A DNA stretch of 40,894 nt from Clostridia bacterium (lineage in GTDB: Bacteria; Bacillota; Clostridia; Oscillospirales; Acutalibacteraceae): the NCBI GenBank assembly GCA_017382015.1, contig JAFOBC010000042.1:1-40894 (forward strand), given 5' to 3'. The notes under the pieces are model-generated. The model worked only from the letters and a program-made list of their open reading frames with translations, made no database searches and was not told where the DNA came from. This document shows, one piece after another, positions 12,564-39,970 of this stretch (the first letter of the stretch is position 1; the number at the start of each line of letters is the position of its first letter). The position numbers were made by a program, and so were the translations under genes.

Positions 12564-12606
12564 AAAAAACACTTCTGAAACCCAACCGGCGACAGAAGTG
12601 TTTTTT
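12564..12606. terminator. bidirectional terminator ending the minus-strand toxin/immunity operon
   Basis: aaaaaacacttctg...cagaagtgtttttt is read on the minus strand as stem plus T6, 82 nt after the stop at 12688. Confidence 0.7.
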
Positions 12607-12687
12607 GTTAAACATCTTAACTTAAATCAATCAAAGGCTAATAATTATCACAAAAAGATAACCTTGATAACATTCATCAACACAGAG

Positions 12688-14673: not shown

Positions 14674-14679
14674 TACAAA

Positions 14680-15393: not shown

Positions 15394-15407
15394 AACAACA
15401 ATCCTCC

Positions 15408-18098: not shown

Positions 18099-18184
18099 AA
18101 TAAAGATTACTCCGTTTCTTGTATATACCGCAAACAATATCACCGCTAAAAAGCGGATTTCAAAGCGACTGATATTTTCAGTAA

Positions 18185-20860: not shown

Positions 20861-20949
20861 CGCAGATCTAATCCTTTCGTCAAATAGTTTTAGAGAGTAT
20901 TAATTAAACCATTATTGATAAGCTGATGCTATAAACTTACTATCTATAT

Positions 20950-20980
20950 AACCCAAGGGTTGAGAATCAACCCTTGGGTT
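20950..20980 (-). terminator. perfect 12-bp hairpin between the tubulin-like gene and the downstream block (possible partial terminator or processing site)
   Basis: aacccaagggtt-gagaatc-aacccttgggtt lies 9 nt after the stop at 20989. There is no strong T-run on the minus strand. Confidence 0.4.
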
Positions 20981-20988
20981 CATTTGAA

Positions 20989-23900: not shown

Positions 23901-24753
23901 TACCTCTTTCAAAAAGTCTCTTGTGAGAAGTATATGTCTTGTCAAGGGTCTTTACAGAATACACAGTATCTGTAATCTGTTCATTACCGACACTCATAAA
24001 ATAGTCAAGCTCTTTAAATGCTGCGTATCCGTTTCTCTGAAGGTTTGACCATCTATCAGGGTTACCGCCAATGGCAGGAATTGACTTCTGCACATCAGGA
24101 GTATAGAAAACGCCATACATTTCTGATTTAATGCTACGATCTTCATGAAGGTCATCCAAAAGCATTCTCACCATGTAACTGATATCGATAAAAGTACCGC
24201 TGCCTGTACCACCGGACACACCAGCCACAATTACAACCTGAAGAATTTCATTGGCTCCAACCGTCAATGAGTTAATCTTGGAACTGATTCGAGCTCTGAG
24301 AGCTTCATATTTAGGTGTTGCGCAAAGCATAACTCTGCCAACAGCTCTGCGCTGTTTTGCACCATCGCCTTTAATTGGTTCAGCCGGCACATCAACGCTA
24401 AGCCATGACTCAACTACAGGGGGCCTTTTAATCAACAATCCATCCGCCGACGAATCATAAACAGGAAAAGTATCGTTCAGTGTAAGATTTCCGCCTGCCT
24501 GAACATTAAGTTCATCCATATCCCCTTGAGCAGTATCCACCGCAAGGAACTGAATACGACCTGTGTCATAAAAATCTCTGAGATAGACACCTTTGGTGGT
24601 ATTAACAGTTTTGCAACCCATACCGCCAAGACCGATAACCAAAACTTTGCCCGATGACGTAATCTCAGCTTTTGTAACTTTTTTTACAAGGCTTCCGCCG
24701 CCTGAACTTGAAAGCTCATCTAAAACTTTTCTCATTGAAATAGGATCTGGCAT
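20989..24753 (-). CDS. giant tubulin/FtsZ-superfamily GTPase-like protein (N-terminal GTPase domain plus ~1000-aa helical extension)
   Basis: 1254 aa. T1-like VLVIGLGGMGCKTV (aa 37-50), T3-like GDGAKQRRAVGR (aa 129-140) and the tubulin signature VAGVSGGTGSGTF are all present. The GGTGSG codons are at 24196-24213. An AAGGAGA SD lies 8 nt upstream. Confidence 0.75.
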   Translation of the reverse strand: MPDPISMRKVLDELSSSGGGSLVKKVTKAEITSSGKVLVIGLGGMGCKTVNTTKGVYLRDFYDTGRIQFLAVDTAQGDMDELNVQAGGNLTLNDTFPVYDSSADGLLIKRPPVVESWLSVDVPAEPIKGDGAKQRRAVGRVMLCATPKYEALRARISSKINSLTVGANEILQVVIVAGVSGGTGSGTFIDISYMVRMLLDDLHEDRSIKSEMYGVFYTPDVQKSIPAIGGNPDRWSNLQRNGYAAFKELDYFMSVGNEQITDTVYSVKTLDKTYTSHKRLFERGNVYIVSPTATCYRCEDIIETTAQSLMDLFRNGATDGANMTQSLISELSNATSLGNTWDLDIGKVADDATPADNSGIKNTLLPAFMNYNFSALGVRSIYFPRNEMVAYCSNEAFLEVYKEWSKAFEFTQQSVCQAASSCKIGSIDEIYAFVAAQLNISGDKLRVYPDETAYPVKKMFKVDGTDDTVTEATEKVNRNINSISQTVCNNIIDSLASSIISKFEDQNFLYNSGPFAAIVLLSGHDGRLKGFIQLLADYSNNIALAVNEKQQELDRATEALRKGKQTLDSDRNPHSDEIEVFISLCQKYSEAYFEYSFYSRFMRYIIDGVRSKLNAFNSETFEIYVPIIKCVMDMLSNDATAFAQSTLRVEGNSSIYSLNAFALNDARNQNDLFRTIFDGYIDKEKVDAVKQQFVASMFAPDRKAKWKNISENPSALADEIRSLFNSVTGDLVSQMLEKLMVIVYGDANSIIARNNNNQQVTIADINNIWNDTNLRNNALSSAASNIVDSLIDSLMLKFEVDHNTANEFSKKATVILLNETRNLNTAIVSELHSRFGDNFVDVAYMGDGSVCEHKTCITMAMSKTFVPLAMVSGMRNYAQEYFRSEKSPEAQAGRHLDEVTEKWQNNLPEIFGMDAEAYYAERGRTDLVISDADRATDENGVRNQDRRAYDIIRDAVDYGIKYKYIWSENSKCKFLELTDKSPEFMAQIEARLLQIKANNPAATWIDALHSIEADLHINKTKVIFLDTNIANAGLKAKQTERPDNDFDLKNIYRLVRADMRMAKLVVEAKAFYEGANFFYTMDNLAALRNNVALFVKAIKVDALSYDPQSGWFCKYSDSQYEPPIKFFDDYMRKNDKLDIPFKWYLVFSAFVKNVVCNDVAVQGIVDKFNEMEQTRTAYASWDYVMDEMQVAMAGELMRIRDPQARAQAIEPYYLNSNYKELYCYPKKYTTAQDLIDNFNKFIDELNYCRTYMLL

Positions 24754-24779
24754 AATAGTATTCTCCTTTTTAAATTAAG

Positions 24780-27410
24780 TTATTGTTTGGAATATTCAAT
24801 TTCAATATGAGCACAAGGAACAGAACCGTCTGAGTTCTTTTCACCGCTCAAAACTGAAACTGATAACATAGCACGCTTATTGTTGGGATTAACCGCAGCT
24901 TTATTTTTAATAAGCTTCGGCGAATGGAAAACAACCTGCTTCGCTATGCTTTTTTCAACACTGATAACAATACCGTTTTTACCGTAGAGTGTACCCAATA
25001 AATGCACCCTTGCAAACGTAGGTATCAGATTTACTTCAGCAAAATCTTTTACACTTTTTACCTTTTTGCTGTTTTGAATAGTGGTAGCCATAAAATCACT
25101 GTAAAACTTGACAAACAAACTTACTACTGTTGCCATGTCACTGTTTCTTACCTTTGAGCCACCGATAAAGTATCTCTCATCAAACTCGTTGCTGCGCATT
25201 TCTTCTTCGCGAGGAATTACAGTGCCACCTTGCATCGGATCAGAAAACTGTCCCCAGACGTCATTGCCTGATGCTTGTGCAGGAGTATCTGCACTTGCTG
25301 GCGGGAAAGTAAACGAACCGCTGTTGGAAGCAGAACTGCCGCCGGCCATCGGGTTAACGTCACCAAAAGGAGTGGAATTTGCTGAAGTACCCGCCATCGG
25401 GTTAACGTCACCGAAAGGAGTGGAATTTGCTGAAGTACCCGCCATCGGGTTAAATACGTAACCTGCTCCCCCGGGATTAAATATCGGGTCACCTGCTCCC
25501 GGGTTGAAATTCGGCAAACCGCCGGGCACCGTATTTACTACAGAGGTGTCGTGATCAATATTAGGGTTAGAGTAAACAATCTTAGTGTTTCTATATGTGC
25601 CGGATGCATCGATAATACCCTCTGCAATGCTTACAACTCGCATTTTACCCTTAACCTTGTTAGAGGCCTTCTTGGCAAAATATGAGAAAAGAATAAGCGC
25701 AACAATCAACAGCAGAATAGTGATAATTATCATTGCAACTGCTACGGGATCGTGAACTTTGATTTTGAAAGTTGTTTCAACAACATTTCCTTGTGCATCT
25801 TCAAAGGCAACTGTTGCCAAGGTTGAACTCCACTTTTTACCGCTTACAACAAGCTGGTCGCCGTTAAGAGTTACATCCGCTACATCTGCCGAACCTATCG
25901 ATGAAACAGAGCCTGTAATCTTATCGTTTTCGGAATCTGCCACATACTGATAAACATCGTCAACTGTAACAGTCTTATTCTTATTTACTTTTATCTCAGG
26001 GATATCACCCACTATGTAGAGCGGTTTATTGCTGGACTTTACCTCCAAGGTATCTTCTCGATAAACAGTATCCCAGTCCAGGCGAATTGTAATATCGTAG
26101 AAGCAATCCTCTGGAATAATAAAACTGCCAACAAAAGAGAAACCGTCTCTTACAAGCGTTATCTCTTTCTTGTTTTCGGGGTTTGCTCTGGGAACACAAA
26201 TCGCTTTGGCTGATTTTACTGCCGCATAAATAGCCTCGTCATTAATATCAACACCATCGTAAGCAAGCCACGTTTTGATGCCAATCTCATCGTTGCTGTA
26301 TGCAATGCCACTCGGATTACCGGTCGGCAAAGTAATTTTGCTTGTAAGATTCATTTTAAAATGCTCTAACAAGCCAACGTGTATATCTTCACCCTTTATT
26401 CCCTCAACAACCAGAAGCCATTTTCCGGTCTTCGGCATTGTTACCTTGATGCTTGCGGCTCTTGCATCAACATCAAACCTGACATTACCTGAGTTTCTCA
26501 ACTCAATTTCGTTACCGTCAGGGTCAAACAGCTTTATTTTTCCGTTAGCTATTGAATTTTCATCGCCGCCTGCGATTCTTATGTTGGCTTCCACAACGCT
26601 GGGGCTTACGTTAATCGAACACTCGTGTTTACCTCCGTCACCCGGAATAGTGGCAACGGTTGTGTAATTCAGGTCACATACATCAGCAAGAAACTCAATA
26701 AGCAGCTGTTCAATCTCTTTGATGCTGCTGATCGATTTAAACTTACCGTTAGTTGTTTCCGAAATATTCTTAAGCTTCTTAAGGCCCTCACCGTTAGAAC
26801 CCATGGAATTTGTACCGTCAGATTTCAGATAGTCGTAACCTACAGTATAAATCGGGCAATTATTCTTCTTAGCCCAAAGCAATGCAGAAGCTTCATTTTC
26901 TTCACATCTTGATAAAGCCAACGAATCATTATCGAAGTCATTGACACCATCTGTGAAAAGAATTACCGCCTGCTGCCTTTCATCGGTCTTATTTGCCTTC
27001 AGGAGCTCCGTTGCCTTGAATACCGCATTACCTATGCCCGTACCACCGTTAAAGACAATATCAGAAACGTTCTTTTTGATGGTAGCTATATCAGTAAGGC
27101 TCTCCAGGCTGAGAAGAGCATCATTTCCCTTGGCATCTTTTGTTAACACAGTTGCCGTTTTATTAAAGCCGACAACACCAACCTTGCTGCCTTCTACCGG
27201 CATCATATTTATCAGCATTCTGACTGCGGCCAAAGCTGTTCTTGTCTTGTCAGATTCTTTCATAGAACCACTGCTGTCTATAACAACAACCAAGTCAAGA
27301 GGTTTATATTCTCTTTCTTTTTCGATGTCGGCTGCACTTCCCGAAACAAAAAGCGAAGAAAGCACGACAATCAGGCAAAGAACAACACCTAAGATTTTTT
27401 TAATTCTCAT
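24780..27410 (-). CDS. secreted vWA-domain protein with Ig-like middle region, single TM helix and cytoplasmic repeat-bearing tail/domain
   Basis: 876 aa. It has a signal peptide, then the MIDAS motif DSSGS in LVVVIDSSGSM (about 27264-27278), then FTDGVND. A beta-rich region of ~300 aa follows. The TM helix VAVAMIIITILLLIVALILFSYF is at about 25680-25748. The tail carries FNPG x2 and NPMAG x3, followed by a ~140-aa C-terminal domain. Confidence 0.75.
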   Translation of the reverse strand: MRIKKILGVVLCLIVVLSSLFVSGSAADIEKEREYKPLDLVVVIDSSGSMKESDKTRTALAAVRMLINMMPVEGSKVGVVGFNKTATVLTKDAKGNDALLSLESLTDIATIKKNVSDIVFNGGTGIGNAVFKATELLKANKTDERQQAVILFTDGVNDFDNDSLALSRCEENEASALLWAKKNNCPIYTVGYDYLKSDGTNSMGSNGEGLKKLKNISETTNGKFKSISSIKEIEQLLIEFLADVCDLNYTTVATIPGDGGKHECSINVSPSVVEANIRIAGGDENSIANGKIKLFDPDGNEIELRNSGNVRFDVDARAASIKVTMPKTGKWLLVVEGIKGEDIHVGLLEHFKMNLTSKITLPTGNPSGIAYSNDEIGIKTWLAYDGVDINDEAIYAAVKSAKAICVPRANPENKKEITLVRDGFSFVGSFIIPEDCFYDITIRLDWDTVYREDTLEVKSSNKPLYIVGDIPEIKVNKNKTVTVDDVYQYVADSENDKITGSVSSIGSADVADVTLNGDQLVVSGKKWSSTLATVAFEDAQGNVVETTFKIKVHDPVAVAMIIITILLLIVALILFSYFAKKASNKVKGKMRVVSIAEGIIDASGTYRNTKIVYSNPNIDHDTSVVNTVPGGLPNFNPGAGDPIFNPGGAGYVFNPMAGTSANSTPFGDVNPMAGTSANSTPFGDVNPMAGGSSASNSGSFTFPPASADTPAQASGNDVWGQFSDPMQGGTVIPREEEMRSNEFDERYFIGGSKVRNSDMATVVSLFVKFYSDFMATTIQNSKKVKSVKDFAEVNLIPTFARVHLLGTLYGKNGIVISVEKSIAKQVVFHSPKLIKNKAAVNPNNKRAMLSVSVLSGEKNSDGSVPCAHIEIEYSKQ
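25345..25453 (-). repeat. 48-bp in-frame tandem repeat (2.3 copies) encoding NPMAGTSANSTPFGDV
   Basis: Units start at 25345, 25393 and 25441. Copies 1 and 2 differ at a single position. Confidence 0.9.
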
Positions 27411-27727: not shown

Positions 27728-28834
27728 TCAGATGTTATCCTGACTGTAGTGGTTTATATAGAGAAGATAATGGCTCACCCTCAATTCAGAATACTCGCGT
27801 GCATCCTTCTCTATGGGCTGCCCATAATATCCCCAGTAATCGGACGAGGAGCTGATATAGTTCTCGCTGTTTTCTTTCCATTCACGCGCCCTCTTGTAAA
27901 AATAAGAGTTCTTCACCTGAGGTGAACCGAAATCGAGTGAATTTATAGTATCGTAAACAAATGCGTGATGCATTTCATGAAGAACTGTTACCAGCACATC
28001 TTCAAGCTCGCCCTCATTAAGATGCTGATAATTAATAACGATTTGGTTTGAATCATCGAGATAGTAGCCGTAAGTGGTTGTTTGCATCTTATCTGTATAG
28101 ACTCTTATTTCAACATTACTGTCGATACCAAGGTGTTCCTTCTCAATCATAGCTACTGCTCTTACTACGCGCTCTTTTTCTTCCGCAGAAATCGAATCCC
28201 ATTCGAGCAAACCTTTGATTTTGTCTGCGTAAGGAAATATTTTGTCAAAGTCTGATTCATCATCAGCTGAGCTGTCTTGTTCATACCACTCAACAAAATC
28301 GTCCCAATTTTCACTCGAACGAAAATCTTTTTCATACTCCTCACAATAACCCAGAAATGCCGGAACAGCCAGCACAATGCAGAGTCCGTAGGCTACAAGT
28401 GAAGATGAACGATGCCAGCACCAGAAAGCCAGCTCTTTTGTCATCTTCTCAGTTTTTTTGTTTTCCAGAAAGATGTGGCGGGTAAGAAGGAACAATCCGA
28501 CAACAGCGCCGACAATCAGCACGGCTGCAACCCAGAAATGATACTGCGCGAACAGATAAAAGCACATAAACTCAAGTGTAAGAACCGTTTCGATAAACAC
28601 GCCCATTCCGCCTCTGAAACGCGGATTTGTTTCTACCAGCAAAGGTATGGCGATAGCCGTAGCCATGCCCAGAAGCAAGCTCTCAACCCTGTTTAAACTA
28701 AAATCGAAATCAGCAAAATACAGAGAGTATCCTTTTGTAAAATACAGCGAAAAGAAAGCCATTAATACGACCGCTTCCTGAAAAGCAACTCTGAAAAAGC
28801 CGTAGCTTTCAACATATTTTGCTATTGATTTCAT
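27728..28834 (-). CDS. polytopic membrane protein with C-terminal HExxH zinc-metallopeptidase-like domain
   Basis: 368 aa. About 5-6 TM helices occupy the first 165 aa. The soluble domain contains LVTVLHEMHHAF, with the HEMHH codons at 27965-27979. The SD is AAGGGAG. Confidence 0.6.
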   Translation of the reverse strand: MKSIAKYVESYGFFRVAFQEAVVLMAFFSLYFTKGYSLYFADFDFSLNRVESLLLGMATAIAIPLLVETNPRFRGGMGVFIETVLTLEFMCFYLFAQYHFWVAAVLIVGAVVGLFLLTRHIFLENKKTEKMTKELAFWCWHRSSSLVAYGLCIVLAVPAFLGYCEEYEKDFRSSENWDDFVEWYEQDSSADDESDFDKIFPYADKIKGLLEWDSISAEEKERVVRAVAMIEKEHLGIDSNVEIRVYTDKMQTTTYGYYLDDSNQIVINYQHLNEGELEDVLVTVLHEMHHAFVYDTINSLDFGSPQVKNSYFYKRAREWKENSENYISSSSDYWGYYGQPIEKDAREYSELRVSHYLLYINHYSQDNI

Positions 28835-28986: not shown

Positions 28987-29033
28987 ACAAAAAAGCTCTC
29001 AACCTTCGCAAAAAGATTGAGAGCTTTTTATTT
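28987..29033. terminator. bidirectional rho-independent terminator ending the kinase/PP2C block
   Basis: The 12-bp stem aaaagctctcaa/ttgagagctttt has A/T runs on both sides. On the minus strand the stem is followed by TTTTTTGTGTTT, about 20 nt after the stop at 29047. Confidence 0.75.
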
Positions 29034-29046: not shown

Positions 29047-29502
29047 TTAACTGCTGTATTCTGCCAGCAAGTCGAACAGGCAGCCGCAATGCAGGCTATT
29101 CTCTTTATCGTAAACAAACTCAAAAAGAACAGCTGTGGCAAGCTTTTTATCGGCACGGTATTTCAGCAGCCGGTAAAGTTCTCTCTGCGTTTCGGTTTTG
29201 CCCAGGTAGAACTGAAATCCGCTGAGCACCAAAACCTTGCAGTCTTTATACTCGTCAAAAAACGCATCTGTTCCGCCATCGAAAATAATGTAATCAACCA
29301 ACTCGTCCACAAGAGACTTCACGTCGGTCACAACAGCATCATCGCCGCCAAAAGCTTTGAAAAAGCGTGTGTAATCCTCTGCTTTCTGATCATCGATACC
29401 ATCAGCAAAAACAAAACACGCATCACCGTTGCAAACGCTTCGTAAATTTTCCAGAAGACGAGCATCCTGCGGATATTTTTCTTTCAACTCATCAAACATC
29501 AT
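29047..29502 (-). CDS. small acidic hypothetical protein
   Basis: The track ORF starts at a GTG at 29508. The ATG at 29502 (MMFDELKEK...) lies 5 nt after GAGGAG. It is translationally coupled to the upstream gene (stop at 29512). No family is recognised. Confidence 0.55.
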   Translation of the reverse strand: MMFDELKEKYPQDARLLENLRSVCNGDACFVFADGIDDQKAEDYTRFFKAFGGDDAVVTDVKSLVDELVDYIIFDGGTDAFFDEYKDCKVLVLSGFQFYLGKTETQRELYRLLKYRADKKLATAVLFEFVYDKENSLHCGCLFDLLAEYSS

Positions 29503-29511
29503 ACACACTCC

Positions 29512-29985
29512 TCACACTAAGTTATACGTTTCATTGAACTCAGCTTGCTGTATGCCGTAGACATCATCGTAGGTTTCGTCGAAAACAATGTATCCGCCTG
29601 CAGCAATATTCATTATTTCGCCCCAAGGAGCAACAAACGATATGCTTTCATCAATTTGCACAGCCGTAATCGGGTACCAAGCAGGCCTGTAACCATCCTG
29701 CGTGCCCTCGATTTTTTCGTACTTCTTGCGGAAAACCTCATCCTTGACGATATACTGCTCACCCGTCGGATTTGTTACAACCCAACCGGGATTTCCGTTT
29801 TCATCGCAGACGACCGTGTTTTTCGTCTCCTCAAGGCCGTTTGACATAACCGTGACTATTTCCTCACCGACAACACCCTGCCTTGCACGGATTTCCCCCT
29901 TCTTCTGGTAGCGCCTGGCCTCAAAATCACCGCCCAGAAGGTATCCCTTCATATTTTCAATCATTCTGAATTTTGCGTTTTCCAT
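29512..29985 (-). CDS. small hypothetical protein with an internally duplicated G..Y(I/V)V....F...Y motif
   Basis: The track start is a GTG at 29994 that overlaps the SD. The ATG at 29985 (MENAKF...) lies 8 nt after AGGGAG. The duplicated motif appears as GWVVTNPTGEQYIVKDEVFRKKYE and GGYIVFDETYDDVYGIQQAEFNETY. Confidence 0.55.
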   Translation of the reverse strand: MENAKFRMIENMKGYLLGGDFEARRYQKKGEIRARQGVVGEEIVTVMSNGLEETKNTVVCDENGNPGWVVTNPTGEQYIVKDEVFRKKYEKIEGTQDGYRPAWYPITAVQIDESISFVAPWGEIMNIAAGGYIVFDETYDDVYGIQQAEFNETYNLV

Positions 29986-30112
29986 AACCGTCACTCCCTT
30001 CTGTTACGTTAACTACAGTATATGTTATACAAACCCGAAAATCTTCGGGGGATATATATAATTTTGAGAACAACTTAACATCCGCGTGCAGGGCCTCTGC
30101 GCCTTATGATAT

Positions 30113-33100
30113 TCAATCCGCCTCGTCAATAATCTGTGATACGGCTTCATCAAGCTGACAATCCCGACAGATAACCGTCTTAACGCCGTACGCAGCCTCA
30201 CCGTGCTTTATAACTGCCTCATTGTCCGCATCACGATAACTGTCACCGACAAGAGCAATCAGCACAAGCTTCTTATTGATGCCAAAGCGATTTCCGACAT
30301 CTCTGAGCTTGGCATAAAAATCCGTTATAAGACGGTTACAGCATTTCACCTCAATCAACTGCATGGAAAAGTCTTTGATTGCAACTATATCAAAACCTTG
30401 TGTTGCAACGTACTCATCACCGTTATTCTTATGGCATTGAACCTCTACGGAAATACCCGCATCATCGCAGAAGCTGCTTTCCTTTATTTTATAGTACGTG
30501 TAGAGCTCGGCAAGCTGACCTTCTGTGGATAACAAGGATTTAACTGATTCGGATGCAAAGCAAAAATCAAAGCAGATTCCGCTCAATGGCGCACCGTTGC
30601 CGATACTGTTGTACGGGGTTTCGCTCATATCAACAATGTATCCTTTTTCGATAAGGTAGCTGAAAATATTCCGTACGTTGCCGTAAAGTTCTCTTTGTTT
30701 ATCATCAGCTTCACCTGCGGTTGTGCCGAGGGCATTCCACACGCTGATATCAAAATTGAAATTCTCAACAACCAAAGAATCTACGCTTATCTGCACAGAG
30801 TTTTTGATACGGACGGTACGGATTTTCGATTCATCAGCCAACGCATAAATGTTTTTTGACAGAAGTCTGACAAACGCATTTTTAACCGCAACATCTGACG
30901 TAAACTTAACGCGAAACATTGTTGAATTATGGTCTTTAATCTCCCAGCTGTCAACCATACCTATTGCTTCATCAGATAAGAACGCGAGTATTTTTTTGAC
31001 AGAAGCACGGCAGAAACCGGGCAGAAAATGCTCTGTCACAGCAGTTGCTCTTACCGCTGATTTGTTTTCATTTATCAAAAGGCTGAAAAGCTTATCGCTT
31101 ACATTAACCTTATCTCCGATAGCTTTGCAAAGCGTATTCCAGCTCTCTGTCATACGGTATTGGCAGCAACAGCTATCCCAGATATCATAATAATCGTTAT
31201 GAAGCTCCGGCTCACAATAAACGCCGGGGCGGTCGTGCGCTATAAACGCATCTTCGACATTAAGGTGAATGTCAAAGGGAATATCGTTATACCGACAGTA
31301 ACCGTTTGTGTTCATCGCACAAAACTGCATTGCAACCGAATCAAACTTATATGACGGAATATCAACTTCTTTCAGCGCAGAAGAAACCGCATCGCTGATT
31401 TCGTCCGACCCAAGCTCAACAGCCGAAAACCTCAAAGGAGAATCCTGATTGGCGATAAAGGTGTTTGCTATCTTCTGTGACAGATCTGAGCGCTCATTCA
31501 GCTCAACAAAATCGACTCGGTCTATACGCGGCGAAACCGCACCGAGCGCCGCTTTTGCCTGTGCGCAAGCATCATTGCTGAGCGGTTTATCAGACATGTC
31601 TACGTAAAAAATAAAGTTTATGCCGGTTTGAAGGTTACGGTTATCCATCAGCTTTGTAATGTGCGACATAACCTTCAGCATCGACGGCGTTACAATATCT
31701 GACCCACCGTCAGCACAAACAATATATGTAACCTTTTCAGGGTTTATAACAAGGGCAGATGCCACGTTATCAAACCATCTATTCTCTGTTTCGTCAACTA
31801 TCAAGGGCATACATATTCTCTGCCGTGCCGTATAATTCAGAATAAACGGCAAAGAAGCCAGAATACGGTAGTCAACCTCTTTGTAGTCTGTGTAACTGTA
31901 TGCTTCTTTTACAGGTGCGAACAGCTCACAGATTTCGTTAAACTTTTTCTTTATATCTTCCTTGCCGGGCGGATTGATTGCCTCAAGCTTATTCAGGAAG
32001 ACAGTTTCACAATGGCTGAGATTTTTTATTACGTTGCTTCTTTTTGTTTTACGCGTCTTAACTGCGTTCATTGCAACCATACACGAATTGAACGCAACCA
32101 ACAGCCCGTGGTTTGCCCCTATGTATTTCCTTAAAATTTCAGCTTCTTTTTTCAGCGCATGCATATCAAATGCCACGGCCTTCGCCATATAATGCCGATG
32201 AAGCTGTACGGACATCCTGTCGAGAGGGTCGAGATTTCCGAGGGCGCTGTCATCCGGATAATCCCAGGCCGATAATGATTCTGTCCACTCTTCGCCGCCC
32301 AATGCCCATTCGTTGCCGCCGGGAACGATACGCACATGCTTGCGCTCAGCCTTGTTTTTGCTGCCGCTGTTCAGATGCTTGAACTCTTCCTCAGGCAACA
32401 ACCTGTAAGATGAGCAAATCATATTTACGTTCCAGCGTGCGTGCTCATACATCGTAAGCTCATCAAGACATTTTTGCTGCTCTTCTGTTCTTGCCGCTGC
32501 GCTGATGCCCGTTTTTTCGCGGTAAGCACAGGAAAGCTCAAGCATTTTCTTCCGTCTGTCAGCAACAGTTTCAGCTCTGACCTCTTCAAGGCTCAGACCG
32601 ATACTGTGAAGCTTATATTTCAAAGAAATCGCCATGGACATTGATGCCGTGTAGTTATACGGATTCATAAATGCTTCGCGCGCACAATTCATATCAAGGC
32701 TCAGATTGTTCTTTCGCAGAATGTAGCAGTTAAAGCCTGCATCGTGCAGGAAATTACAATCCCTGTGTCGGGCAATAAGCGACTGTGTTATGTGCACGGG
32801 GTTTATTACATCCCCGACAGCTTTTTTGTTTCGGGCGTTTTCTTGGCCCATATTCTTATAAGTAACAAAGTTGACTACGGACTTCTTGCTTTTAAGCAGA
32901 CCCGTCTTTGTTAAATCGCTTGCTATTCTCCTGTTCAGCCTCTCATCAGACAAGCTGACAAACACATAGCCGAATTTTTCATCCGAACCAAGAGTTTCTT
33001 TAAGAATGGCTATGTTATCTTCGGAATCCGCGGCAAGCTCCGACCTTATCTGCACAAAACTCACTCTGCCGTAATCACAGTATACCGAGCTGCCGTATTT

Positions 33101-34654
33101 TCCGAGGTAGGCAGGTTTCTCCCCGTTTACCCAAAAATAATTCCTGATCTCGGGGCGCGATTCAAGATAGCGCCGCTCATCGCTTTCCTTATCCTTTGAT
33201 GCAACAACAACGTTCAGGTAGCAGCCCTTTATCTGGCTCATTTCAAGCGCAATATCCAGAAACTTCTGACCAAAAACACCGGCACCCAGAACAAGAACGT
33301 TCAGCTTGCCATCCTGCACGTAATCATACAGAGGACGGTCATACAGCAAGCATTGCATTGCCGAAATTGCGCCGCCGATTTTTTCAATTTCTTTGCCGTA
33401 GTATTCCTCTTTGTCGGCCATTTTTACTATAGCCTTTTTGCCTGTAGCGGCCTCTGCCTTGCCGATTGCAATTATATTTTTTACTTTTTCATCAACCGCT
33501 TCAATGGCATCGATAAATTCATCAACACTTTCAAAGTTGGTTAAGCCATGTGCATAGTCACGCGGACATCTGGCAAGAGAACGCTTCAGAATGTTGACGA
33601 TACCGTCCGCAATTTCAACACCGGACGTATATTCGGAATATTCAAACAACCAGGAATGGCGCAAACGGCCCGTTATTTCGCCGAAGTTTTTCACCTCATA
33701 GAGACCCCTGCCATCCTTGCCTAAAACAATTGAATTATACAGCGTTGCACCGAGAGAAAATATATCGGTTTTACAGCCGACTTTCATAGTCGCTATATCA
33801 CCCGTGAGCTCGGGAGCCGCAAAATATTTTGTGCCCATAAACCTGATTTCGCCGGCACCGGCACGGGAATGCAGGCTGTTAATATCAAACATTGCAACAG
33901 AAACGTTATCGCCGCTCTTATCGCCAAGGTCTCTTACACCGAAGTTGGACGGCTTGATATCAAGGTGAAGCATAAACTTCTCATGAATAATCAGAATGCC
34001 CTTGGCAAGCGCCCTGACAGCCTGAAGGATAAAGTGAAGCTCATTTGCAAGGTATAAGTTAAGGTTGCCGCCGGGTGAATCTATTTCGTGGGCAACACGC
34101 TTGTACATATCGTTCAGGTGATCTTCAAAGCTTACAAGACTTCTGTCGCCCGAAGTCCAGATATAAACAGTATGGTTGCTGTCATCATCCTTTGAAATGC
34201 CTTGGTAAATCTCAAAATTCTGAAAATAGCTGTCGCTGCAGGAGCTGTTTTCAATCAGCTCCAGAACCTTATAATGAGATTCGCAAAACTCTTTTCTGGC
34301 TTCTTCAAATTTTGCTTTTGTTGATTCCCCGGAATAAAGCTGGTTTGCAACAAGGCGTTCATCTATATCGTAACGCTTGAGATGAAACGCGTGCGCGCCC
34401 TTATCTCTCGAGCCGTCATCCATATCCATAGGATAAAACTCTTTGAGTATACCCTGCTTGCGCATACCGTTTGCAAGAATTTTTTCGGCGCTGTAACAGA
34501 TACAGCTGCCGCCGGCATTTACTACTCCTTTAATGAGAAAATCCACGCCGACGCGGTCTCTGTCCGACGTTACATACTGAAGCCTTATGCTTCCGGAAAG
34601 AGGGATTCTTCCCTGCATTCTTTTTTTAAGTTTTTCACCCTCTAAAAAGCCCAA
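30113..34654 (-). CDS. 1513-aa multidomain protein: N-terminal Ser/Thr protein kinase-like domain, Rossmann-like GxGxxG module, long middle region, C-terminal PD-(D/E)xK (Card1/NERD-like) nuclease-fold domain
   Basis: Kinase motifs: G-loop-like VNAGGSCICY, the lysine in GILKEF, the catalytic loop HLDIKPSN (33944-33967), VAMFDINS in place of DFG, and YFAAPEL. A Rossmann-like LNVLVLGAGVFGQKF lies at aa 451-465. The C-terminus has GFDIVAIKDFSMQLIEVKC (D..E.K at 30344-30391). The start is TTG, 3 nt after the PP2C stop. Confidence 0.7.
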   Translation of the reverse strand: MGFLEGEKLKKRMQGRIPLSGSIRLQYVTSDRDRVGVDFLIKGVVNAGGSCICYSAEKILANGMRKQGILKEFYPMDMDDGSRDKGAHAFHLKRYDIDERLVANQLYSGESTKAKFEEARKEFCESHYKVLELIENSSCSDSYFQNFEIYQGISKDDDSNHTVYIWTSGDRSLVSFEDHLNDMYKRVAHEIDSPGGNLNLYLANELHFILQAVRALAKGILIIHEKFMLHLDIKPSNFGVRDLGDKSGDNVSVAMFDINSLHSRAGAGEIRFMGTKYFAAPELTGDIATMKVGCKTDIFSLGATLYNSIVLGKDGRGLYEVKNFGEITGRLRHSWLFEYSEYTSGVEIADGIVNILKRSLARCPRDYAHGLTNFESVDEFIDAIEAVDEKVKNIIAIGKAEAATGKKAIVKMADKEEYYGKEIEKIGGAISAMQCLLYDRPLYDYVQDGKLNVLVLGAGVFGQKFLDIALEMSQIKGCYLNVVVASKDKESDERRYLESRPEIRNYFWVNGEKPAYLGKYGSSVYCDYGRVSFVQIRSELAADSEDNIAILKETLGSDEKFGYVFVSLSDERLNRRIASDLTKTGLLKSKKSVVNFVTYKNMGQENARNKKAVGDVINPVHITQSLIARHRDCNFLHDAGFNCYILRKNNLSLDMNCAREAFMNPYNYTASMSMAISLKYKLHSIGLSLEEVRAETVADRRKKMLELSCAYREKTGISAAARTEEQQKCLDELTMYEHARWNVNMICSSYRLLPEEEFKHLNSGSKNKAERKHVRIVPGGNEWALGGEEWTESLSAWDYPDDSALGNLDPLDRMSVQLHRHYMAKAVAFDMHALKKEAEILRKYIGANHGLLVAFNSCMVAMNAVKTRKTKRSNVIKNLSHCETVFLNKLEAINPPGKEDIKKKFNEICELFAPVKEAYSYTDYKEVDYRILASLPFILNYTARQRICMPLIVDETENRWFDNVASALVINPEKVTYIVCADGGSDIVTPSMLKVMSHITKLMDNRNLQTGINFIFYVDMSDKPLSNDACAQAKAALGAVSPRIDRVDFVELNERSDLSQKIANTFIANQDSPLRFSAVELGSDEISDAVSSALKEVDIPSYKFDSVAMQFCAMNTNGYCRYNDIPFDIHLNVEDAFIAHDRPGVYCEPELHNDYYDIWDSCCCQYRMTESWNTLCKAIGDKVNVSDKLFSLLINENKSAVRATAVTEHFLPGFCRASVKKILAFLSDEAIGMVDSWEIKDHNSTMFRVKFTSDVAVKNAFVRLLSKNIYALADESKIRTVRIKNSVQISVDSLVVENFNFDISVWNALGTTAGEADDKQRELYGNVRNIFSYLIEKGYIVDMSETPYNSIGNGAPLSGICFDFCFASESVKSLLSTEGQLAELYTYYKIKESSFCDDAGISVEVQCHKNNGDEYVATQGFDIVAIKDFSMQLIEVKCCNRLITDFYAKLRDVGNRFGINKKLVLIALVGDSYRDADNEAVIKHGEAAYGVKTVICRDCQLDEAVSQIIDEAD

Positions 34655-34657
34655 CTC

Positions 34658-35356
34658 TTATACCCCTTTCGGTATATCCATCATAATGACACTGCAATCA
34701 TCCGCACAGCGCTGATTTTCAAGATAACCTGCAATATCGTTTTCTTTCACTGCCTGCAGCATCTCAAACGACAGCGAGCCGCTGTCACCCGAATAAAAGG
34801 TTTTCCATGCGCCGTCTGTCGCCAGCAAAAATTTTACGTCGCTTTTTTGGCTGATTTTGATATCAACGACATCCGCGACATTTTTTGTGGTTGTTGTGTA
34901 TGTCATGCCGTCGTATGAAACACGCGGCGCACCGCACAGAGTCATACTGCCTTGCTCAACCAGATATATAAGGCTGTCGCCAAGAACAAAGGTCATAACC
35001 TCGCCGCTGAGTTTATTATAGCACACAAAGCTCAGGGTTGATGCATAAGACTCGAGACGGTTATTATATATCGCTGCTTCTTCTGCCAGCTTTTGGCGAA
35101 TATATGAAGACAAAAGATTTGTCACTTTCCCCTCTGATGCCGAAAACATATACTCTGTTTCATCAAGCATCACTCTGCTTGCAGATTCGCAGGCAATTTC
35201 GGCGCCTCTTTTTCCGTTTTCGCAGGCAGAAACGCCGTCAGCAATCGCACAAATCTTTGCCGTATTACTCTCTGCCTGCCAAACCACATCCTGGCTCTGC
35301 AAGCCGTTTAACAAATGATAACTTCCGGTCTTCCGGTATACAGGTACGTTATTCAA
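34658..35356 (-). CDS. PP2C-family Ser/Thr protein phosphatase
   Basis: 232 aa. CAIADGVSACENGKRGAEIA (the DG.G metal-binding block), LLATDGAW and C-terminal DDCSVIMMD are the canonical PP2C motifs. The start is TTG, 3 nt after the upstream stop. Confidence 0.75.
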   Translation of the reverse strand: MNNVPVYRKTGSYHLLNGLQSQDVVWQAESNTAKICAIADGVSACENGKRGAEIACESASRVMLDETEYMFSASEGKVTNLLSSYIRQKLAEEAAIYNNRLESYASTLSFVCYNKLSGEVMTFVLGDSLIYLVEQGSMTLCGAPRVSYDGMTYTTTTKNVADVVDIKISQKSDVKFLLATDGAWKTFYSGDSGSLSFEMLQAVKENDIAGYLENQRCADDCSVIMMDIPKGV

Positions 35357-35359
35357 GAA

Positions 35360-38300
35360 TCACTTTTCTCCTATCTCCCGCTCTGTTCTTTTAAATTGGT
35401 CATAAAGCTTTTGGTATTGGTCTACAAAGCTGTCTACAGGGTCTGTATACAGCGGCAGGAAATTATCGCGGTAAGCAATATAGATTACATAAATATCAAA
35501 AATATTCTTGCTGTTTACCGGCGCATAGCCTGCCTCTTCAAGCATTTTATCTGCTCCCTTGTAGCTGATTGTTTCCGACATCGGCAGCTCAGAGCATTCA
35601 TCGTACGAATAATCCATATCATCCAACTCAACGTTGAAAATATCGCCGTTGACAAAAACGTCGTAAAACTTTTCAAAGTTTCCGAAGTAGGTTTCTTCGT
35701 CAGCTGACCTTTTCAGCCAGTTGATTAAAACAAACTGATAAAAACAAACCGCCATAACCGTGCTTCTGCTTACGTTTTTAAAGCGGATTTCTTCACCCAT
35801 TTCAACAGTAAGCCTTTTCTGGATTCTGTTCAGCAGCAGCTTTAACGAAGCATAGCTTTCCGTGCACAGATCGTTTACCCTTGAAAAGCTTGCCTCAAAC
35901 CTTTCCTTGGGTGTATCAAACTGCCTGCCCTTCAACCTCATAAACTTTGCTTTCAGCTGCTCTTTTTCCTTCGCAGTCTGTCCGAAATACTCAAAGCAAT
36001 CTCTGCAGTTTTCAAAAACAATTTTTCCCAGACCGTCTTCCGAATCGAGATTTGTTTCGAAAGGCTCAAAATATTCTTTGCAGTAAGGGAAAATGTCTGT
36101 GCTGTGCTTGGGGCAGTTGCGGCATCTGCGGCTTGTCAGGTAGTGGTATTCATAAAAGAAATCTTCCAGCTCATACGACATCAAAGCAAGCTCCAGTTTA
36201 TCTGTGGTTACGTCAGACAGTTCTTTTACCTTCACAACCTTGTACAGCAAGCTGTTGACAACTGCCTCCTGCTCCCTGATAACACGCGCAGCCGTACGCT
36301 GCTCATCATTTATCTGCATTATTCCGGAATCGTTTGATTTGCAGGGATAGTTTTTTGTCAGATAACTCTTAAACTTTTCTTCCGTGAGAGACATTGTGCC
36401 TGCAAAGCCCTCTTTGTATCGCTTTGTTATATAATCCTGCTCATCCCTGATGCTGCCGGAAAAATCATCCTGCGTTTTTCCGTATTTTTTACAGTAGGCT
36501 ATAATTTCATACGCTTTTTCAAGCCTTTGCTTCGGAGTCAGCTCCGGCTGCTCCAGACACCAGAGGAATGTAACCTCGGCAAAATTTTTATAGTTGATTC
36601 CGTAACCGTCAACCGACGTGTCTTCGCTGTCTCCCAAGCCTGCAACCAACGGCAGACGATTGACTATATTGTCTGTATAATAATCCCAGAAAAGGTTTTT
36701 TTCGATATCGCAGATTCTCAACGGGTTACCGTTTTCGACACTCCTGATATCAAAGGCAACGGCAAAAATATACAGATATTCTCTTGTTTTACCCTGCGAG
36801 GAAAACTCGGCATTTGCCAGAGAATCCGCAATCTCAAGCAGGGTATAATCGTTAAACTCACGGGCGCAAGAGGAATACAGCACTTCACGGTTATCTTTAA
36901 AATCTTCTCCGCCCTTTTTGCTGGCTGTGTTATATCTTGATCGTACCCGCTTATACAGCCTCTGTGTATATTTTTCTTTATCTTCTACAAAACGCTCTGC
37001 GTATGCAATAAATTGCTTGAGGGAATTATTGTCATTTTTCAGCACTTTACCCGTTGCGTGAAGAATTTTGTCAACAACCGAGTCATTGACAATATCAGAG
37101 AAAAACTTTGCACCGGGCACCCAGGAAATCTTAACACCGGGACAAACATCCTGTAGAAGTGCAATATTTTCGGACGTGACAGGAATAGCCTGAGCGTAAT
37201 ACTTGGCAAGCACCATCAGCCTGTATATATCGGGGTAGTTAACGTAGGTAATCGGCTCGCCCAGTGCTCTTTCCGTCTGCTCCTCATACGCCTTGCCTAT
37301 CTTGGCTGCATAATTGATTTTTTCCGCCTTCTTTGCCTCGGTGCTTTCACACAGATCAAACAGGACCTTTTCAAGCGAGTTTACCAGCTTGATATATTTT
37401 TCTTTATCTTCAGAGCTTTCAAAATCTGCATATTTTATCTTCTCCGGAGAAAAAACACTGCTCAGTTTGCATTTTTGGCCTTTGTTTTTCTCCACTTTCA
37501 AAAAAGCTTCGGGCTGCAGATTTTTAATCAAGTCTTCGTTTGATTTTTTTCTCAGCACCTGAATTTTATCTCCGAAAAACTTAAGCAGAGTATACAGACG
37601 TAACGAATAAGAAAAATCGGTATACAGGTAATAGCCTCTGCTGTGTCTTTGTCGCAGCATCTCGTTCAACTCTTCCACCGCGTCAATACTCTCAAGCGAA
37701 GAATAGTTTCTGATATGCTTAATGCCTATCTCATAATACGGCAACGAATCTGCAAAGCAATCAGAAAGCAGCACCGCCGTACCGTTAACCGCCGCCTCAG
37801 AAAGAACATCGGCTCTCATAACACGGCAAAGGCGCTCACAAATCTCTTTTGTTACATAAGTCATCGGCGCTTTGATTCTGATAGTACCGTGCAACTTTGT
37901 CAGCTCACCTATATATTTGTCGCCGAACAAAACGCCCTCTTTATCATCGCTTTTTATATCCTGCGGCTGTGAAATCAGGTCAAATATACTGTCGTCAATT
38001 TTATCAACGTCACCGTTGTATTTTTCAGCAACCACATCTTCAAGCTCTTCGCACCTGATGCCTTTACAGTCATAACCAAACTGATTTATAAACTGCTTTA
38101 AAATAAGCACCCTTGTTGTCAGACCCGCGATACTCTCATCCGTCACGTTGAAATTATAGCGAAGAAGGCGCCTTACCAGACGTGTCATATGGTCTGCTGA
38201 CGATTTGTATTCACCGTAAATTTCGTTAAGCTTCTTCAGAAATTCAGCATCAATAGTACGGTCGATTTCGTCAATGCTTCTGAGCATATATGCGTAGTCT

Positions 38301-38620
38301 TCGTATGTATCCAAAGCGTCTTCAATCTCGTCAATACCGTCAGAGCTGAAATCCGTAATCAGCCCCTTAGCGCGGCGCTCACCTGCAGCATTTTCAATAT
38401 AATGTTTTTCTGTATATTGCGGAATGGTGCCCAACAGGACAAGCAACTCATCCTGCTGATCGGAAAGCTTGGTCAGATGCTCACCGCTGTGTGCTGTGCT
38501 TCGCATTTTTTCAATGATTCGCAAAGCTTCTCCTCTGGCAATTATACAAAAAAACTCATCCAGTTTTGCCTTGGTATCTCTTGCTTGATTTGTAAAATCT
38601 GTCGGCATAAAGGTTGACAT
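35360..38620 (-). CDS. 1086-aa protein of unknown function, first gene of the kinase/PP2C block
   Basis: It is a long uninterrupted ORF with an AAGGGG SD 6 nt upstream. It looks predominantly helical and charged, and I recognise no enzymatic motif. One Cys cluster, RRCRNCPKHSTDIFPYCKEY...ENCRDCFEY (about 36000-36130), looks like a zinc ribbon. Confidence 0.7.
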   Translation of the reverse strand: MSTFMPTDFTNQARDTKAKLDEFFCIIARGEALRIIEKMRSTAHSGEHLTKLSDQQDELLVLLGTIPQYTEKHYIENAAGERRAKGLITDFSSDGIDEIEDALDTYEDYAYMLRSIDEIDRTIDAEFLKKLNEIYGEYKSSADHMTRLVRRLLRYNFNVTDESIAGLTTRVLILKQFINQFGYDCKGIRCEELEDVVAEKYNGDVDKIDDSIFDLISQPQDIKSDDKEGVLFGDKYIGELTKLHGTIRIKAPMTYVTKEICERLCRVMRADVLSEAAVNGTAVLLSDCFADSLPYYEIGIKHIRNYSSLESIDAVEELNEMLRQRHSRGYYLYTDFSYSLRLYTLLKFFGDKIQVLRKKSNEDLIKNLQPEAFLKVEKNKGQKCKLSSVFSPEKIKYADFESSEDKEKYIKLVNSLEKVLFDLCESTEAKKAEKINYAAKIGKAYEEQTERALGEPITYVNYPDIYRLMVLAKYYAQAIPVTSENIALLQDVCPGVKISWVPGAKFFSDIVNDSVVDKILHATGKVLKNDNNSLKQFIAYAERFVEDKEKYTQRLYKRVRSRYNTASKKGGEDFKDNREVLYSSCAREFNDYTLLEIADSLANAEFSSQGKTREYLYIFAVAFDIRSVENGNPLRICDIEKNLFWDYYTDNIVNRLPLVAGLGDSEDTSVDGYGINYKNFAEVTFLWCLEQPELTPKQRLEKAYEIIAYCKKYGKTQDDFSGSIRDEQDYITKRYKEGFAGTMSLTEEKFKSYLTKNYPCKSNDSGIMQINDEQRTAARVIREQEAVVNSLLYKVVKVKELSDVTTDKLELALMSYELEDFFYEYHYLTSRRCRNCPKHSTDIFPYCKEYFEPFETNLDSEDGLGKIVFENCRDCFEYFGQTAKEKEQLKAKFMRLKGRQFDTPKERFEASFSRVNDLCTESYASLKLLLNRIQKRLTVEMGEEIRFKNVSRSTVMAVCFYQFVLINWLKRSADEETYFGNFEKFYDVFVNGDIFNVELDDMDYSYDECSELPMSETISYKGADKMLEEAGYAPVNSKNIFDIYVIYIAYRDNFLPLYTDPVDSFVDQYQKLYDQFKRTEREIGEK

Positions 38621-38721: not shown

Positions 38722-38836
38722 CGATACACCGCTTATTTTTACTGTATTTATTTGATTATACTAAAGATTTTCTCCTATTTCAATATACATTGCAGTTGTA
38801 CACAGATTTTGCCCCCCTATTTTTCTGAACCGTTTT

Positions 38837-39970
38837 ATGTCGGATAATACAATCACACCAATAAAATGGAGGAGAATTTCTGTGGTTAATATCAGCATTG
38901 AAACAATAAACCTTAACCCTACCGGCGTATACTACTGCGAAGCTTCTCACAGTGCAGTTAACTCCGTATCCATCGTAATCAACAGGACTTGGAAAGAGGT
39001 AGTTAAAATCCTCATAACTCAGGCACATCTGCGAGCAACCATACCGACTAATGCAACGGTAATATCGGATATGCTCAGAGCAAGCGGGTTTAAAAAAATC
39101 CGCTCATCATCGCTCTACGACTTGCTTGAAGCTAACCCGAACAGCAGCTTTGTTATAAAGATGCATTATTCAGGCTATCATGCGCTTGTGCCGGGTAACG
39201 GCGGCTTTGTGCTGAAAACAGCTAACGCCGCACTTAAGGATATAAGGCTGTACCAAATTGAAGCGATATGGCAATTCTGCCCTGAGGCTGAAAAGGCAAC
39301 GGGCATCAGCCGAAAAAGCCATGCGCGCGACATACCTGACGATTTTGACAAATTTATAGGCAAGAACATTAACCCCGAAAACAAATTTGTCGGCGACTGC
39401 GCAATCAGAGCACTTGGCGGAACGCTGGACTGCACGTGGCACGACGCGCTGGATTACCTGGCAAAAGCGAGCAACTACACAGAGCCGATAGTCAACCTCA
39501 CATCGAACATTGACCTTACTCTCAGCGAGCTTGGACTGGTGCGACATAAACCAATCAAGCTTGGCGGCAAGCTCATCACGGGAAGCGAATTCTGCAACCT
39601 TATGTCACACACATATTTTAAAGGCGAAAGAATTTTCGCATACATAACCAAACCCAGCCACTGCGTCGCAGTTTTACCCGAAAAGCAGGCTGACGGAACT
39701 TACCTTTACAAAATCCAGGACATATGGGACAGCACAACCAAAAAGATAGGCGATTACTGGGTTTTTACACCGCAGAAGCAACCAAAGCCTGCCGCACCGC
39801 AGGTAAGCACACTGCTCGTCGGAGAGAAGATTCACCACCCGACGTACGGCGAAGGAACAATCCTCAGCATCAACCCCTGCGCCGCAACGAACATAGTTGA
39901 AGTCGATTTCATCAGCTGCGGAATCAAAAAGATTACGGAAAGCTGGCTGAAAAACAAAAGCGGCAGTTGA
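38837..39970 (+). CDS. hypothetical protein with possible Cys/His (papain-like) core and a small C-terminal beta domain
   Basis: 377-aa track ORF. An alternative GTG start at 38882 sits 7 nt after GGAGGAG. FVGDCAIRALGG followed by PSHCVAVL has the spacing of a Cys...His catalytic dyad. The C-terminal HHPTYGEGTILSIN..VEVDF..GIKKI resembles the small H.(F/Y)G.G.V domain found at helicase C-termini. Confidence 0.55.
   Translation: MSDNTITPIKWRRISVVNISIETINLNPTGVYYCEASHSAVNSVSIVINRTWKEVVKILITQAHLRATIPTNATVISDMLRASGFKKIRSSSLYDLLEANPNSSFVIKMHYSGYHALVPGNGGFVLKTANAALKDIRLYQIEAIWQFCPEAEKATGISRKSHARDIPDDFDKFIGKNINPENKFVGDCAIRALGGTLDCTWHDALDYLAKASNYTEPIVNLTSNIDLTLSELGLVRHKPIKLGGKLITGSEFCNLMSHTYFKGERIFAYITKPSHCVAVLPEKQADGTYLYKIQDIWDSTTKKIGDYWVFTPQKQPKPAAPQVSTLLVGEKIHHPTYGEGTILSINPCAATNIVEVDFISCGIKKITESWLKNKSGS

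Follow-up and report, generated by a model that had tools for sequence, protein, structure and literature searches.

What does a bacterial protein do that carries a protein kinase at one end and a nuclease fold at the other, and whose gene is tightly coupled to that of a phosphatase? The question is raised by a 40,894-nucleotide stretch of DNA from a Clostridia bacterium of the Acutalibacteraceae (contig JAFOBC010000042.1 of assembly GCA_017382015.1), hereafter the window, which encodes a giant multidomain protein that we call KinNuc directly downstream of a PP2C phosphatase. CARF nucleases are cyclic oligoadenylate (cOA)-activated helpers of type III CRISPR, and kinase/phosphatase pairs are separate defence or toxin-antitoxin (TA) switches. 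An earlier note on this DNA had read the two genes as a nuclease effector gated by phosphorylation.

Here, we determine the domain composition of KinNuc, define the gene cassette to which it belongs, and weigh what the cassette may do. What is new is a combination of known modules in one polypeptide, together with one orphan partner, which we call gene X. We infer that the conserved operon of X, PP2C, the giant gene and a small PGDYG-domain gene is most likely a conflict system, directed against phages or mobile elements and abortive in type, that would be gated by both a ligand and phosphorylation; we put the probability of this reading at about one half.

Domain architecture of KinNuc

About 90 full-length relatives of KinNuc (1280-1560 aa), nearly all from metagenomes and metagenome-assembled genomes of gut and rumen Clostridia, establish the giant open reading frame (ORF) as a real conserved gene and not a chance one; the conservation counts given below refer to 85 aligned relatives. 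The motifs quoted in the earlier note all stand where it had placed them: G68-I-L-K71-E-F, H230-L-D232-I-K-P-S-N237, F256-D257-I-N and A280-P-E282 in the kinase-like region, G457-A-G-V-F-G462 and E737-H-A-R-W741 further on, and G-F-D1422-I-V-A-I-K ... L-I-E1435-V-K1437 near the C-terminus.

Judged by its sequence, the N-terminal domain is a Hanks-type (eukaryotic-like) Ser/Thr protein kinase with intact catalytic residues, as had been claimed. It passes the Pfam cut-off for Pkinase (36 bits against 31.7), and the tetrad K71/D232/N237/D257 is kept in 85/85. The APE motif (P281-E282) and D297/G302 of subdomain IX are also conserved, which argues for a protein kinase rather than a small-molecule kinase, and PDB kinases, DAPK3 and CaMKK2 among them, align over the catalytic and activation segments (aa 210-323). 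Kinase models of PADLOC and NCBIfam find the catalytic core with E values of 1e-9 to 1e-3. Matches to PD-T4-6, Mad6 of MADS, the kinase region of Mokosh MkoA and Stk2-type kinases cover aa ~200-390 only and amount to generic Hanks similarity; with the single-gene kinase defence models KinNuc reaches 18-21 bits, against family cut-offs of 450-550. The phosphatase encoded upstream looks active: its Pfam PP2C_2 match scores 85.8 bits against a cut-off of 24, and the predicted metal-binding positions of motifs 1, 2, 8 and 11 (D23, D40-G41, D127, D181-G182 and D219-D220) are invariant or nearly so among 11 orthologues. A phmmer search of the PDB with this protein returned no match.

At the other end of KinNuc, the PD-(D/E)xK nuclease that the note had proposed from D1422, E1435 and K1437 is upheld in fold and residues, and the note had missed that this is not a bare domain, since it comes with a CARF-like sensor of its own. 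An AlphaFold2 (AF2) model of the C-terminal 571 aa, built on a 63-sequence alignment (predicted local distance difference test score, pLDDT, 93.3; predicted template modelling score 0.88), places the module in the Card1/Can2 fold family, CARF plus PD-(D/E)xK, with the nuclease residues present. In Foldseek searches of the PDB the model matched VC1899 (1xmx, E=3.5e-14), Can2 of T. brockii (8q3y, 1.5e-11; 8q41, 2.4e-10) and Dysgonamonadaceae Can2 (8bao, 1e-9), over a range extending to 4.6e-9, with alignments of 550-614 columns that span both the CARF and the nuclease domains of the targets (TMt 0.48-0.61); the CARF-only proteins Sso2081 and Csa3 came lower in the list. The modelled nuclease core runs alpha-beta-beta-beta-alpha-beta, with E1383 on helix 1, D1422 on strand 2 and E1435-x-K1437 on strand 3.

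The structure model was needed to see this relation; a 6-sequence profile of the C-terminal half found 0 matches among PDB sequences. The window protein itself scores weakly against the relevant families (PADLOC CARF_PDDEXK, E=0.0047; PF09002, E=0.03). Relatives that are 25-27% identical to it over >94% of the length reach 1.4e-9 and 4.5e-7 with these models, above the PF09002 cut-off, and NCBI names some relatives Card1-like endonuclease domain-containing protein or DUF1887. Conserved residues lie at or near two CARF loops (F961-x-N963-V-A965 and A-x-E1080-x-N...S1087), a placement made by the secondary structure of the model only.

The C-terminal ~570 aa of KinNuc thus resemble Card1, Can2 and VC1899 (CARF4, PF09002) over the whole two-domain fold, including the E...D...ExK residues. 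In contrast to Card1 and Can2, the module follows, in the same chain, ~940 aa of kinase, Rossmann and RyR-like domains, has a ~250-aa insert between CARF and nuclease, and stands without a nearby type III CRISPR system or cOA synthase, and the family has lost the nuclease triad in about a quarter of its members: the triad is kept in the window protein and in 64/85, and is degenerate in 21/85.

Between kinase and CARF-like domain, an AF2 model of aa 400-942 (67-sequence alignment, pLDDT 91.7) contains a Rossmann fold at the GxGxxG segment, which the note had rightly called Rossmann-like. Its best Foldseek matches are NAD(P)-binding Rossmann enzymes (probability 0.97-1.0, with weak E values of ~0.02-0.1), and Sacchrp_dh_NADP matches the domain weakly. 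GxGxxG is kept in 63/85 and takes the form GxGxx[S/A] in another 18.

The helical region that follows had been noted for its EHARW motif, which is there; the domain to which the motif belongs, a divergent ryanodine receptor (RyR; R12)-like one, had been overlooked. Searched against the whole PDB, a profile of aa 622-835 from 28 sequences gave RyR repeats as 8/9 matches (best 6uhi, E=0.0031), including repeat domains of RyR1 and RyR3 and the bacterial 'putative ryanodine receptors' 3nrt, 4n05 and 6uag. PF02026 was matched singly by 14/28 members, at best with 2e-4 and always below the gathering cut-off, and no other family recurred. RyR membership, as these profiles suggest it, is specific at the family level but sub-threshold. 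Two repeats are apparent, 'RMAFNxHLxW' and 'ExEHRRW...GW...KD...HxCIV...LDxLDRMS', and an hhalign comparison of the mid region with one RyR protein, insignificant in itself (probability 0.75%), yet pointed to the first of them. Repeat 2 is intact in the window protein (E737, H738, R740, W741, H773, D809, D812), and its ligand residues are intact in 74/85, with D replaced by E in 6 more; N-H-W of repeat 1 is intact in 79/85. RyR domains bind or cleave 2'/3' cyclic ADP-ribose (cADPR), and the phage RyR protein RyDEP binds 3'cADPR and ADP-ribose through H75, W78, H100 and D117 (PMC13232231), with which H738, W741, H773 and D812 of KinNuc line up. Repeat 1 of the window protein reads N-Y-R, and this form occurs at a locus without a TIR gene.

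Gene X and the conserved cassette

We compared 16 loci, namely the window and 15 others that include the most divergent members, at 21-24% identity. A homologue of X adjoins the kinase gene in every one, and PP2C lies between the two in 13/16, with PP2C-kinase gaps or overlaps of 1-4 nt in the loci checked. The coupling of phosphatase and kinase described in the earlier note is therefore a conserved feature, and its two-gene unit had left out a third, obligate gene. In L097 and L100 the giant gene directly follows X with no PP2C. In L008, where X is divergent and PP2C is absent, the giant protein (P0088) has kinase, Rossmann and RyR-like domains (aa 1-813) followed by a canonical RyR domain that replaces the CARF-nuclease module. 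Genes for Cas10, CD-NTase or CRISPR components do not appear in the Pfam tables of any of the 16 loci.

X belongs to a family of its own. A hidden Markov model search of 1.84e9 representatives collected 440 clusters at E<=1e-3, where word-index searches had found 5 proteins only, and conservation is concentrated in a core at aa ~590-790 and in a C-terminal GYQPxNxKNIFD motif. X has no match in Pfam, the PDB, PADLOC, NCBIfam or PHROGs; no Pfam domain recurs among 68 scanned members, and the X profile finds nothing credible in the PDB. Within the core, the motif 'ADDLAxGxFxxxGxTR' (aa ~597-613) has a short match, below significance (E ~0.1), to motif B of GCN5 acetyltransferases (YADNFAIGYFKKQGF). 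This GCN5-like match ('ADxxAxGxFxxQG', PDB) was the only hint of any kind for X, and we judged it probably due to chance.

The small gene immediately 3' of the giant gene differs between clades: in that of the window it encodes PGDYG, in the other a canonical RyR domain 93-103 aa long. PGDYG orthologues directly follow the cassette in L001, L006, L007, L095 and L009 and precede it in L096; at the P0053 locus and in L003 and L011, it is the standalone RyR gene that directly follows the kinase gene. In L009 a 553-aa ORF (12032-13693), which overlaps the kinase stop by 4 nt, fuses PGDYG (aa 77-161) to TIR_2 (aa 422-540) and so ties the PGDYG family to TIR signalling.

Direct reading of the window confirmed the spacing and the two TTG starts reported earlier. 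The PP2C stop and the TTG of the giant ORF are separated by exactly 3 nt (34655-34657), and X stops at 35360, 3 nt ahead of the PP2C TTG. Purine-rich, Shine-Dalgarno-like stretches (AAAGGGG, GGAGA) stand 8-10 nt 5' of both TTG starts. An ATG at codon 13 of the giant ORF has no well-spaced Shine-Dalgarno sequence, and a downstream start for PP2C is impossible because the Pfam match already begins at residue 10. A promoter-like site before X and a terminator-like hairpin after a 153-aa ORF (p153) suggest that X, PP2C, the giant gene, PGDYG and p153 may form a single transcription unit; promoter-like sites in the region are, in total, not above shuffles. The 153-aa ORF has no family match and no homologue in the other loci compared.

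Genomic context and competing explanations

In gut Clostridia the cassette is carried both by a family of conjugative elements and within defence islands. The window shares a backbone with L001, L006, L007 and L095, consisting of ClpP, TraG/VirD4, three small genes and a divergent gene with a PcrA-type Tudor domain, beyond which lie the cassette, PGDYG included, then a variable slot and the gene of a SprT-like membrane protein. The Tudor-domain and SprT-like genes bracket the cassette and the variable cargo slot in related loci of this integrative and conjugative element (ICE), and the distant members L011 and L100 have TraG and ClpP next to them as well. TIR genes occupy the cargo slot in L007 and L095, and the 153-aa ORF alone does so in the window; in L001 the TIR genes come after PGDYG, and the locus ends before any SprT-like gene. 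A profile scan of genome contigs with the family alignment was swamped by generic kinases, L009-L011 being its only true members.

Across the relatives, TIR genes lie 3' of the giant gene on the same strand in 9/14 loci with enough sequence, and further neighbours are of defence type (TIR-NACHT-WD40, DarT/NADAR, DEAD/MZB with SNF2 and DUF1016, and an Apyc1-like gene). In L001 four TIR genes stand side by side, reminiscent of Thoeris loci with their several thsB genes. Mutual identity among the TIR domains from L001, L003, L007 and L009 is 30-46%, though their kinase partners share only ~26%.

If the operon is a conflict system, the giant protein could be receptor and effector in one. The Rossmann and RyR-like module, the CARF-like domain, or both, would bind a nucleotide-derived signal, most plausibly an NAD+-derived one of cADPR type produced by the accompanying TIR proteins. 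Ligand binding would turn on two outputs, the Hanks kinase and the Can2-like PD-(D/E)xK nuclease, and the kinase would phosphorylate itself, X, and proteins of the cell or the invader. PP2C, like the phosphatase of the KKP module that restrains a toxic kinase in defence (PMC11341870), may strip basal phosphorylation, thereby setting the threshold and resetting the switch, and X may be an obligate partner that serves as sensor or scaffold, or as the main substrate.

We tentatively consider a more specific form of this model, a Thoeris-like pathway in which a messenger made by TIR proteins from NAD+ would be read by an RyR-type pocket, with or without the CARF-like domain, and passed to a dual kinase/nuclease effector, with X as obligate partner and with PP2C and, in one clade, a small RyR 'buffer' as off-switches. 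Like Thoeris and RyDEP, most relatives combine TIR genes after the giant gene with RyR-type domains in the giant protein and its small companion. Unlike in Thoeris, the putative receptor would be RyR-like or CARF-like rather than SLOG or Macro, the outputs would be a kinase and a nuclease, PP2C and X are additional, and the window has no TIR gene.

Several observations weigh against a ligand-gated conflict system. The window contains no TIR gene or domain at all, and because the TIR genes of the relatives occupy a variable hotspot flanked by the PGDYG and SprT-like genes, they may be defence genes in their own right. The window sequence by itself has no Pfam RyR match, and RyR-likeness comes from profile matches that are weak but specific; Foldseek did not recover RyR structures from the PDB with the mid-region model and returned nothing useful from BFVD; and repeat 1 of the window protein is degenerate (N642-Y644-R647, window 32714-32731), the sole N-Y-R among the 85. 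The conserved CARF loop residues do not match the canonical CARF motifs, which are unrecognisable, and the cassette holds no cOA or cyclic-nucleotide synthase. Finally, the cassette has diverged about as much as the ICE backbone (window, L001, L006, L007, L095), and a role in maintaining the element fits this co-divergence too.

The strongest rival, though an unlikely one, keeps closest to the earlier note: autophosphorylation would license the nuclease and PP2C would reverse it, much as in TerY-P, and the sensor-like domains would be structural relics. The catalytic residues of kinase, phosphatase and nuclease are indeed all intact and the genes tightly coupled, and TerY-P triads co-occur with separate Can2-like CARF-nuclease proteins in CoCoNuT operons (PMC11090510). 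However, about a quarter of the relatives have a degenerate nuclease triad, the whole module is swapped for an RyR domain in P0088, and the kinase tetrad is invariant. By this contrast, a role as output is no less likely for the kinase than a role as gate, and the switch probably includes ligand sensing; the contrast argues for the kinase as a primary output that does more than gate the nuclease. Among the best conserved positions are, moreover, the RyR-like ligand residues and the two CARF loops. The phosphorylation-gated nuclease of the earlier note stays a hypothesis.

Nor does the cassette belong to TerY-P. That triad consists of the von Willebrand factor A (vWA) protein TerY, PP2C and a Ser/Thr kinase (Anantharaman 2012, Gao 2020, summarised in PMC11090510). 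Both have, in a defence setting, a PP2C_2-type phosphatase beside a Hanks kinase whose C-terminal extension is nucleic-acid-related; the analogy drawn in the earlier note holds for this pair and fails for the defining component, because the conserved cassette has no vWA protein. Its first gene is the orphan X, which has no vWA match, and its kinase carries Rossmann, RyR, CARF and nuclease domains where that of TerY-P has a zinc ribbon or an OB fold. The vWA genes found at 19346-27410 of the window have no counterpart in the other loci, and membership in TerY-P was rejected.

Rather unlikely, too, is an addiction or stabilisation module of the ICE that works like a tripartite TA system, with the kinase/nuclease as toxin, PP2C, X or both as labile antidote, and phage defence as a side effect. 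Such a module would account for the fixed place of the cassette in the backbone, which runs from ClpP and TraG through the Tudor-domain gene to cassette, hotspot and SprT-like gene, for its divergence in step with that backbone, and for TraG and ClpP beside the distant L011 and L100. It also has a precedent in KKP of Pf prophages, where a phosphatase restrains toxic Ser/Thr kinase activity (PMC11341870). KKP is likewise a mobile-element module, and a phosphatase holding a kinase in check is the working model for PP2C here; the likeness is one of working model. KKP differs from the present cassette in its pair of small kinases and in lacking sensor domains, nuclease domains and X. Against addiction stand members outside recognisable ICE genes, such as L002, which sits between housekeeping genes, and the P0053 locus, part of a DarTG/helicase island, and three sensor-type domains are hard to explain in a simple TA module.

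We see only a slim chance that the cassette is an anti-defence factor whose RyR- and CARF-like domains sequester or degrade cADPR isomers and cOA of the host, while the kinase disables host defence proteins during establishment. Phage RyR-domain proteins do act as anti-Thoeris sponges or glycosidases (PMC13232231), the H/W/H/D set is kept in repeat 2, and the cassette adjoins transfer genes. Nevertheless, tblastn found no relatives in PLSDB plasmids or INPHARED phages, a scan of IMG/VR viral contigs gave giant-virus kinases only and no family member, and a predicted active nuclease with same-strand TIR genes typifies defence rather than counter-defence, as do the defence genes in the neighbourhood. 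A housekeeping kinase that regulates the downstream vWA/FtsZl1 (Tubulin_2) membrane-remodelling cluster is scarcely credible: protein kinases are frequent in vWA/FtsZl1 operons (PMC2875224) and 3-6 genes downstream the same strand of the window encodes vWA, Tubulin_2 and a further vWA, but none of the 15 other loci has these genes, and the terminator-like hairpin and the SprT-like backbone gene separate the two units in the window.

Other features of the window and significance of the family

Table 1. Features of the KinNuc cassette, domains of KinNuc and neighbouring genes, in window coordinates
Feature	Position	Strand	Remarks
377-aa protein, C-terminal PcrA/UvrD Tudor domain	38837-39970	(+)	divergent from X
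Promoter-like site 5' of X, TTGAAA-17-TATAAT, 11/12	38755..38783	(-)	consensus match only
Gene X, 1086 aa, orphan, first gene of cassette	35360..38620	(-)	adjoins kinase gene in 16/16 loci
PP2C (PPM) Ser/Thr phosphatase gene, 232 aa	34658..35356	(-)	TTG start; PF13672 E=4e-24
Giant multidomain protein KinNuc, 1513 aa	30113..34654	(-)	TTG start
KinNuc, Hanks-type protein kinase domain (by sequence), aa ~36-395	33470..34549	(-)	Pkinase E=6e-9; non-RD; D-I-N replaces DFG, Asp kept
KinNuc, Rossmann-fold dinucleotide-binding-like domain, aa ~428-625	32780..33373	(-)	G457xGxxG462; AF2 and Foldseek
KinNuc, divergent tandem RyR (R12)-like domain, aa ~630-830	32165..32767	(-)	family profile, PF02026
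KinNuc, helical bundle linker, aa ~831-942	31829..32164	(-)	AF2 helices; conserved K925, D928, P936-F937
KinNuc, CARF-like Rossmann domain, Card1/Can2 type, aa ~943-1115	31310..31828	(-)	AF2, Foldseek
KinNuc, alpha/beta insert between CARF and nuclease, aa ~1116-1360	30575..31309	(-)	AF2; W1172, C1176, P1212 conserved
KinNuc, predicted PD-(D/E)xK nuclease domain, Card1_endonuc type, aa ~1361-1513	30116..30574	(-)	E1383, D1397, D1422, E1435-x-K1437
PGDYG-domain protein, 160 aa, fourth gene in window's clade	29512..29994	(-)	PF14083 E=8e-6
153-aa ORF, probably co-transcribed	29047..29508	(-)	5' of terminator-like hairpin
Terminator-like hairpin, 18-bp stem and T-run, 3' of 153-aa ORF	28990..29029	(-)	consensus match only
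368-aa membrane SprT-like protein	27728-28834	(-)	other side of cassette
vWA, 876 aa (signal peptide and transmembrane segment); Tubulin_2/FtsZl1, 1254 aa; second vWA, 504 aa	19346-27410	(-)

The vWA/FtsZl1 genes form a recognised operon type (Makarova & Koonin 2010, PMC2875224), which here lies within the cargo region of the conjugative element. The Tubulin_2/FtsZl1 protein has its GTPase domain at aa 38-401, followed by ~850 aa without assignment. Absent from the other loci and situated on the far side of the SprT-like backbone gene, these genes do not belong to the kinase unit, and a role for the kinase in their cluster was rejected on gene content (1/16 loci).

Further along the same strand, 14269-18143 (-) encodes a HerA/FtsK-type ATPase of 911 aa, then a protein of 237 aa with an LHH (HNH/EndoVII) nuclease toxin domain at its C-terminal end, and a SUKH-5 immunity protein, which together look like a polymorphic-toxin export and immunity set. 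At 12688-14249 (-), overlapping genes encode a RelA/SpoT-like nucleotidyltransferase (309 aa, a sub-threshold match) and an HD_4 hydrolase (211 aa); the pair, which is not conserved beside the kinase cassette elsewhere, could be a small alarmone synthetase/hydrolase TA system. The GC content is 44-51% over the first ~6 kb, with EutH and rhamnosidase-like genes, and 33-46% over 6-39 kb, and RepA_N-like and helix-turn-helix genes lie at 4989-6988. The shift near 6 kb probably marks the boundary between host DNA and the mobile element.

The closest published juxtaposition of these modules is in CoCoNuT operons, where TerY-P triads stand alongside separate Can2-like proteins (PMC11090510). Our full-text literature searches found no published account of X, of PGDYG or of a fusion of kinase, CARF and nuclease.

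To our knowledge, RyR domains were tied to cADPR immune signals only in 2026, and on the phage side only. Should the tentative Thoeris-like pathway hold, bacterial immunity would have in KinNuc its first receptor with an RyR domain, and KinNuc would also be the first CARF nuclease connected to phospho-signalling instead of CRISPR. The cassette offers a testable system for what CRISPR-independent CARF nucleases sense, what bacterial RyR domains do, and how phosphorylation and nucleotide signalling combine in bacterial immunity. As a stable part of conjugative elements in human and animal gut Clostridia, the family may thereby shape gene flow in the microbiome.

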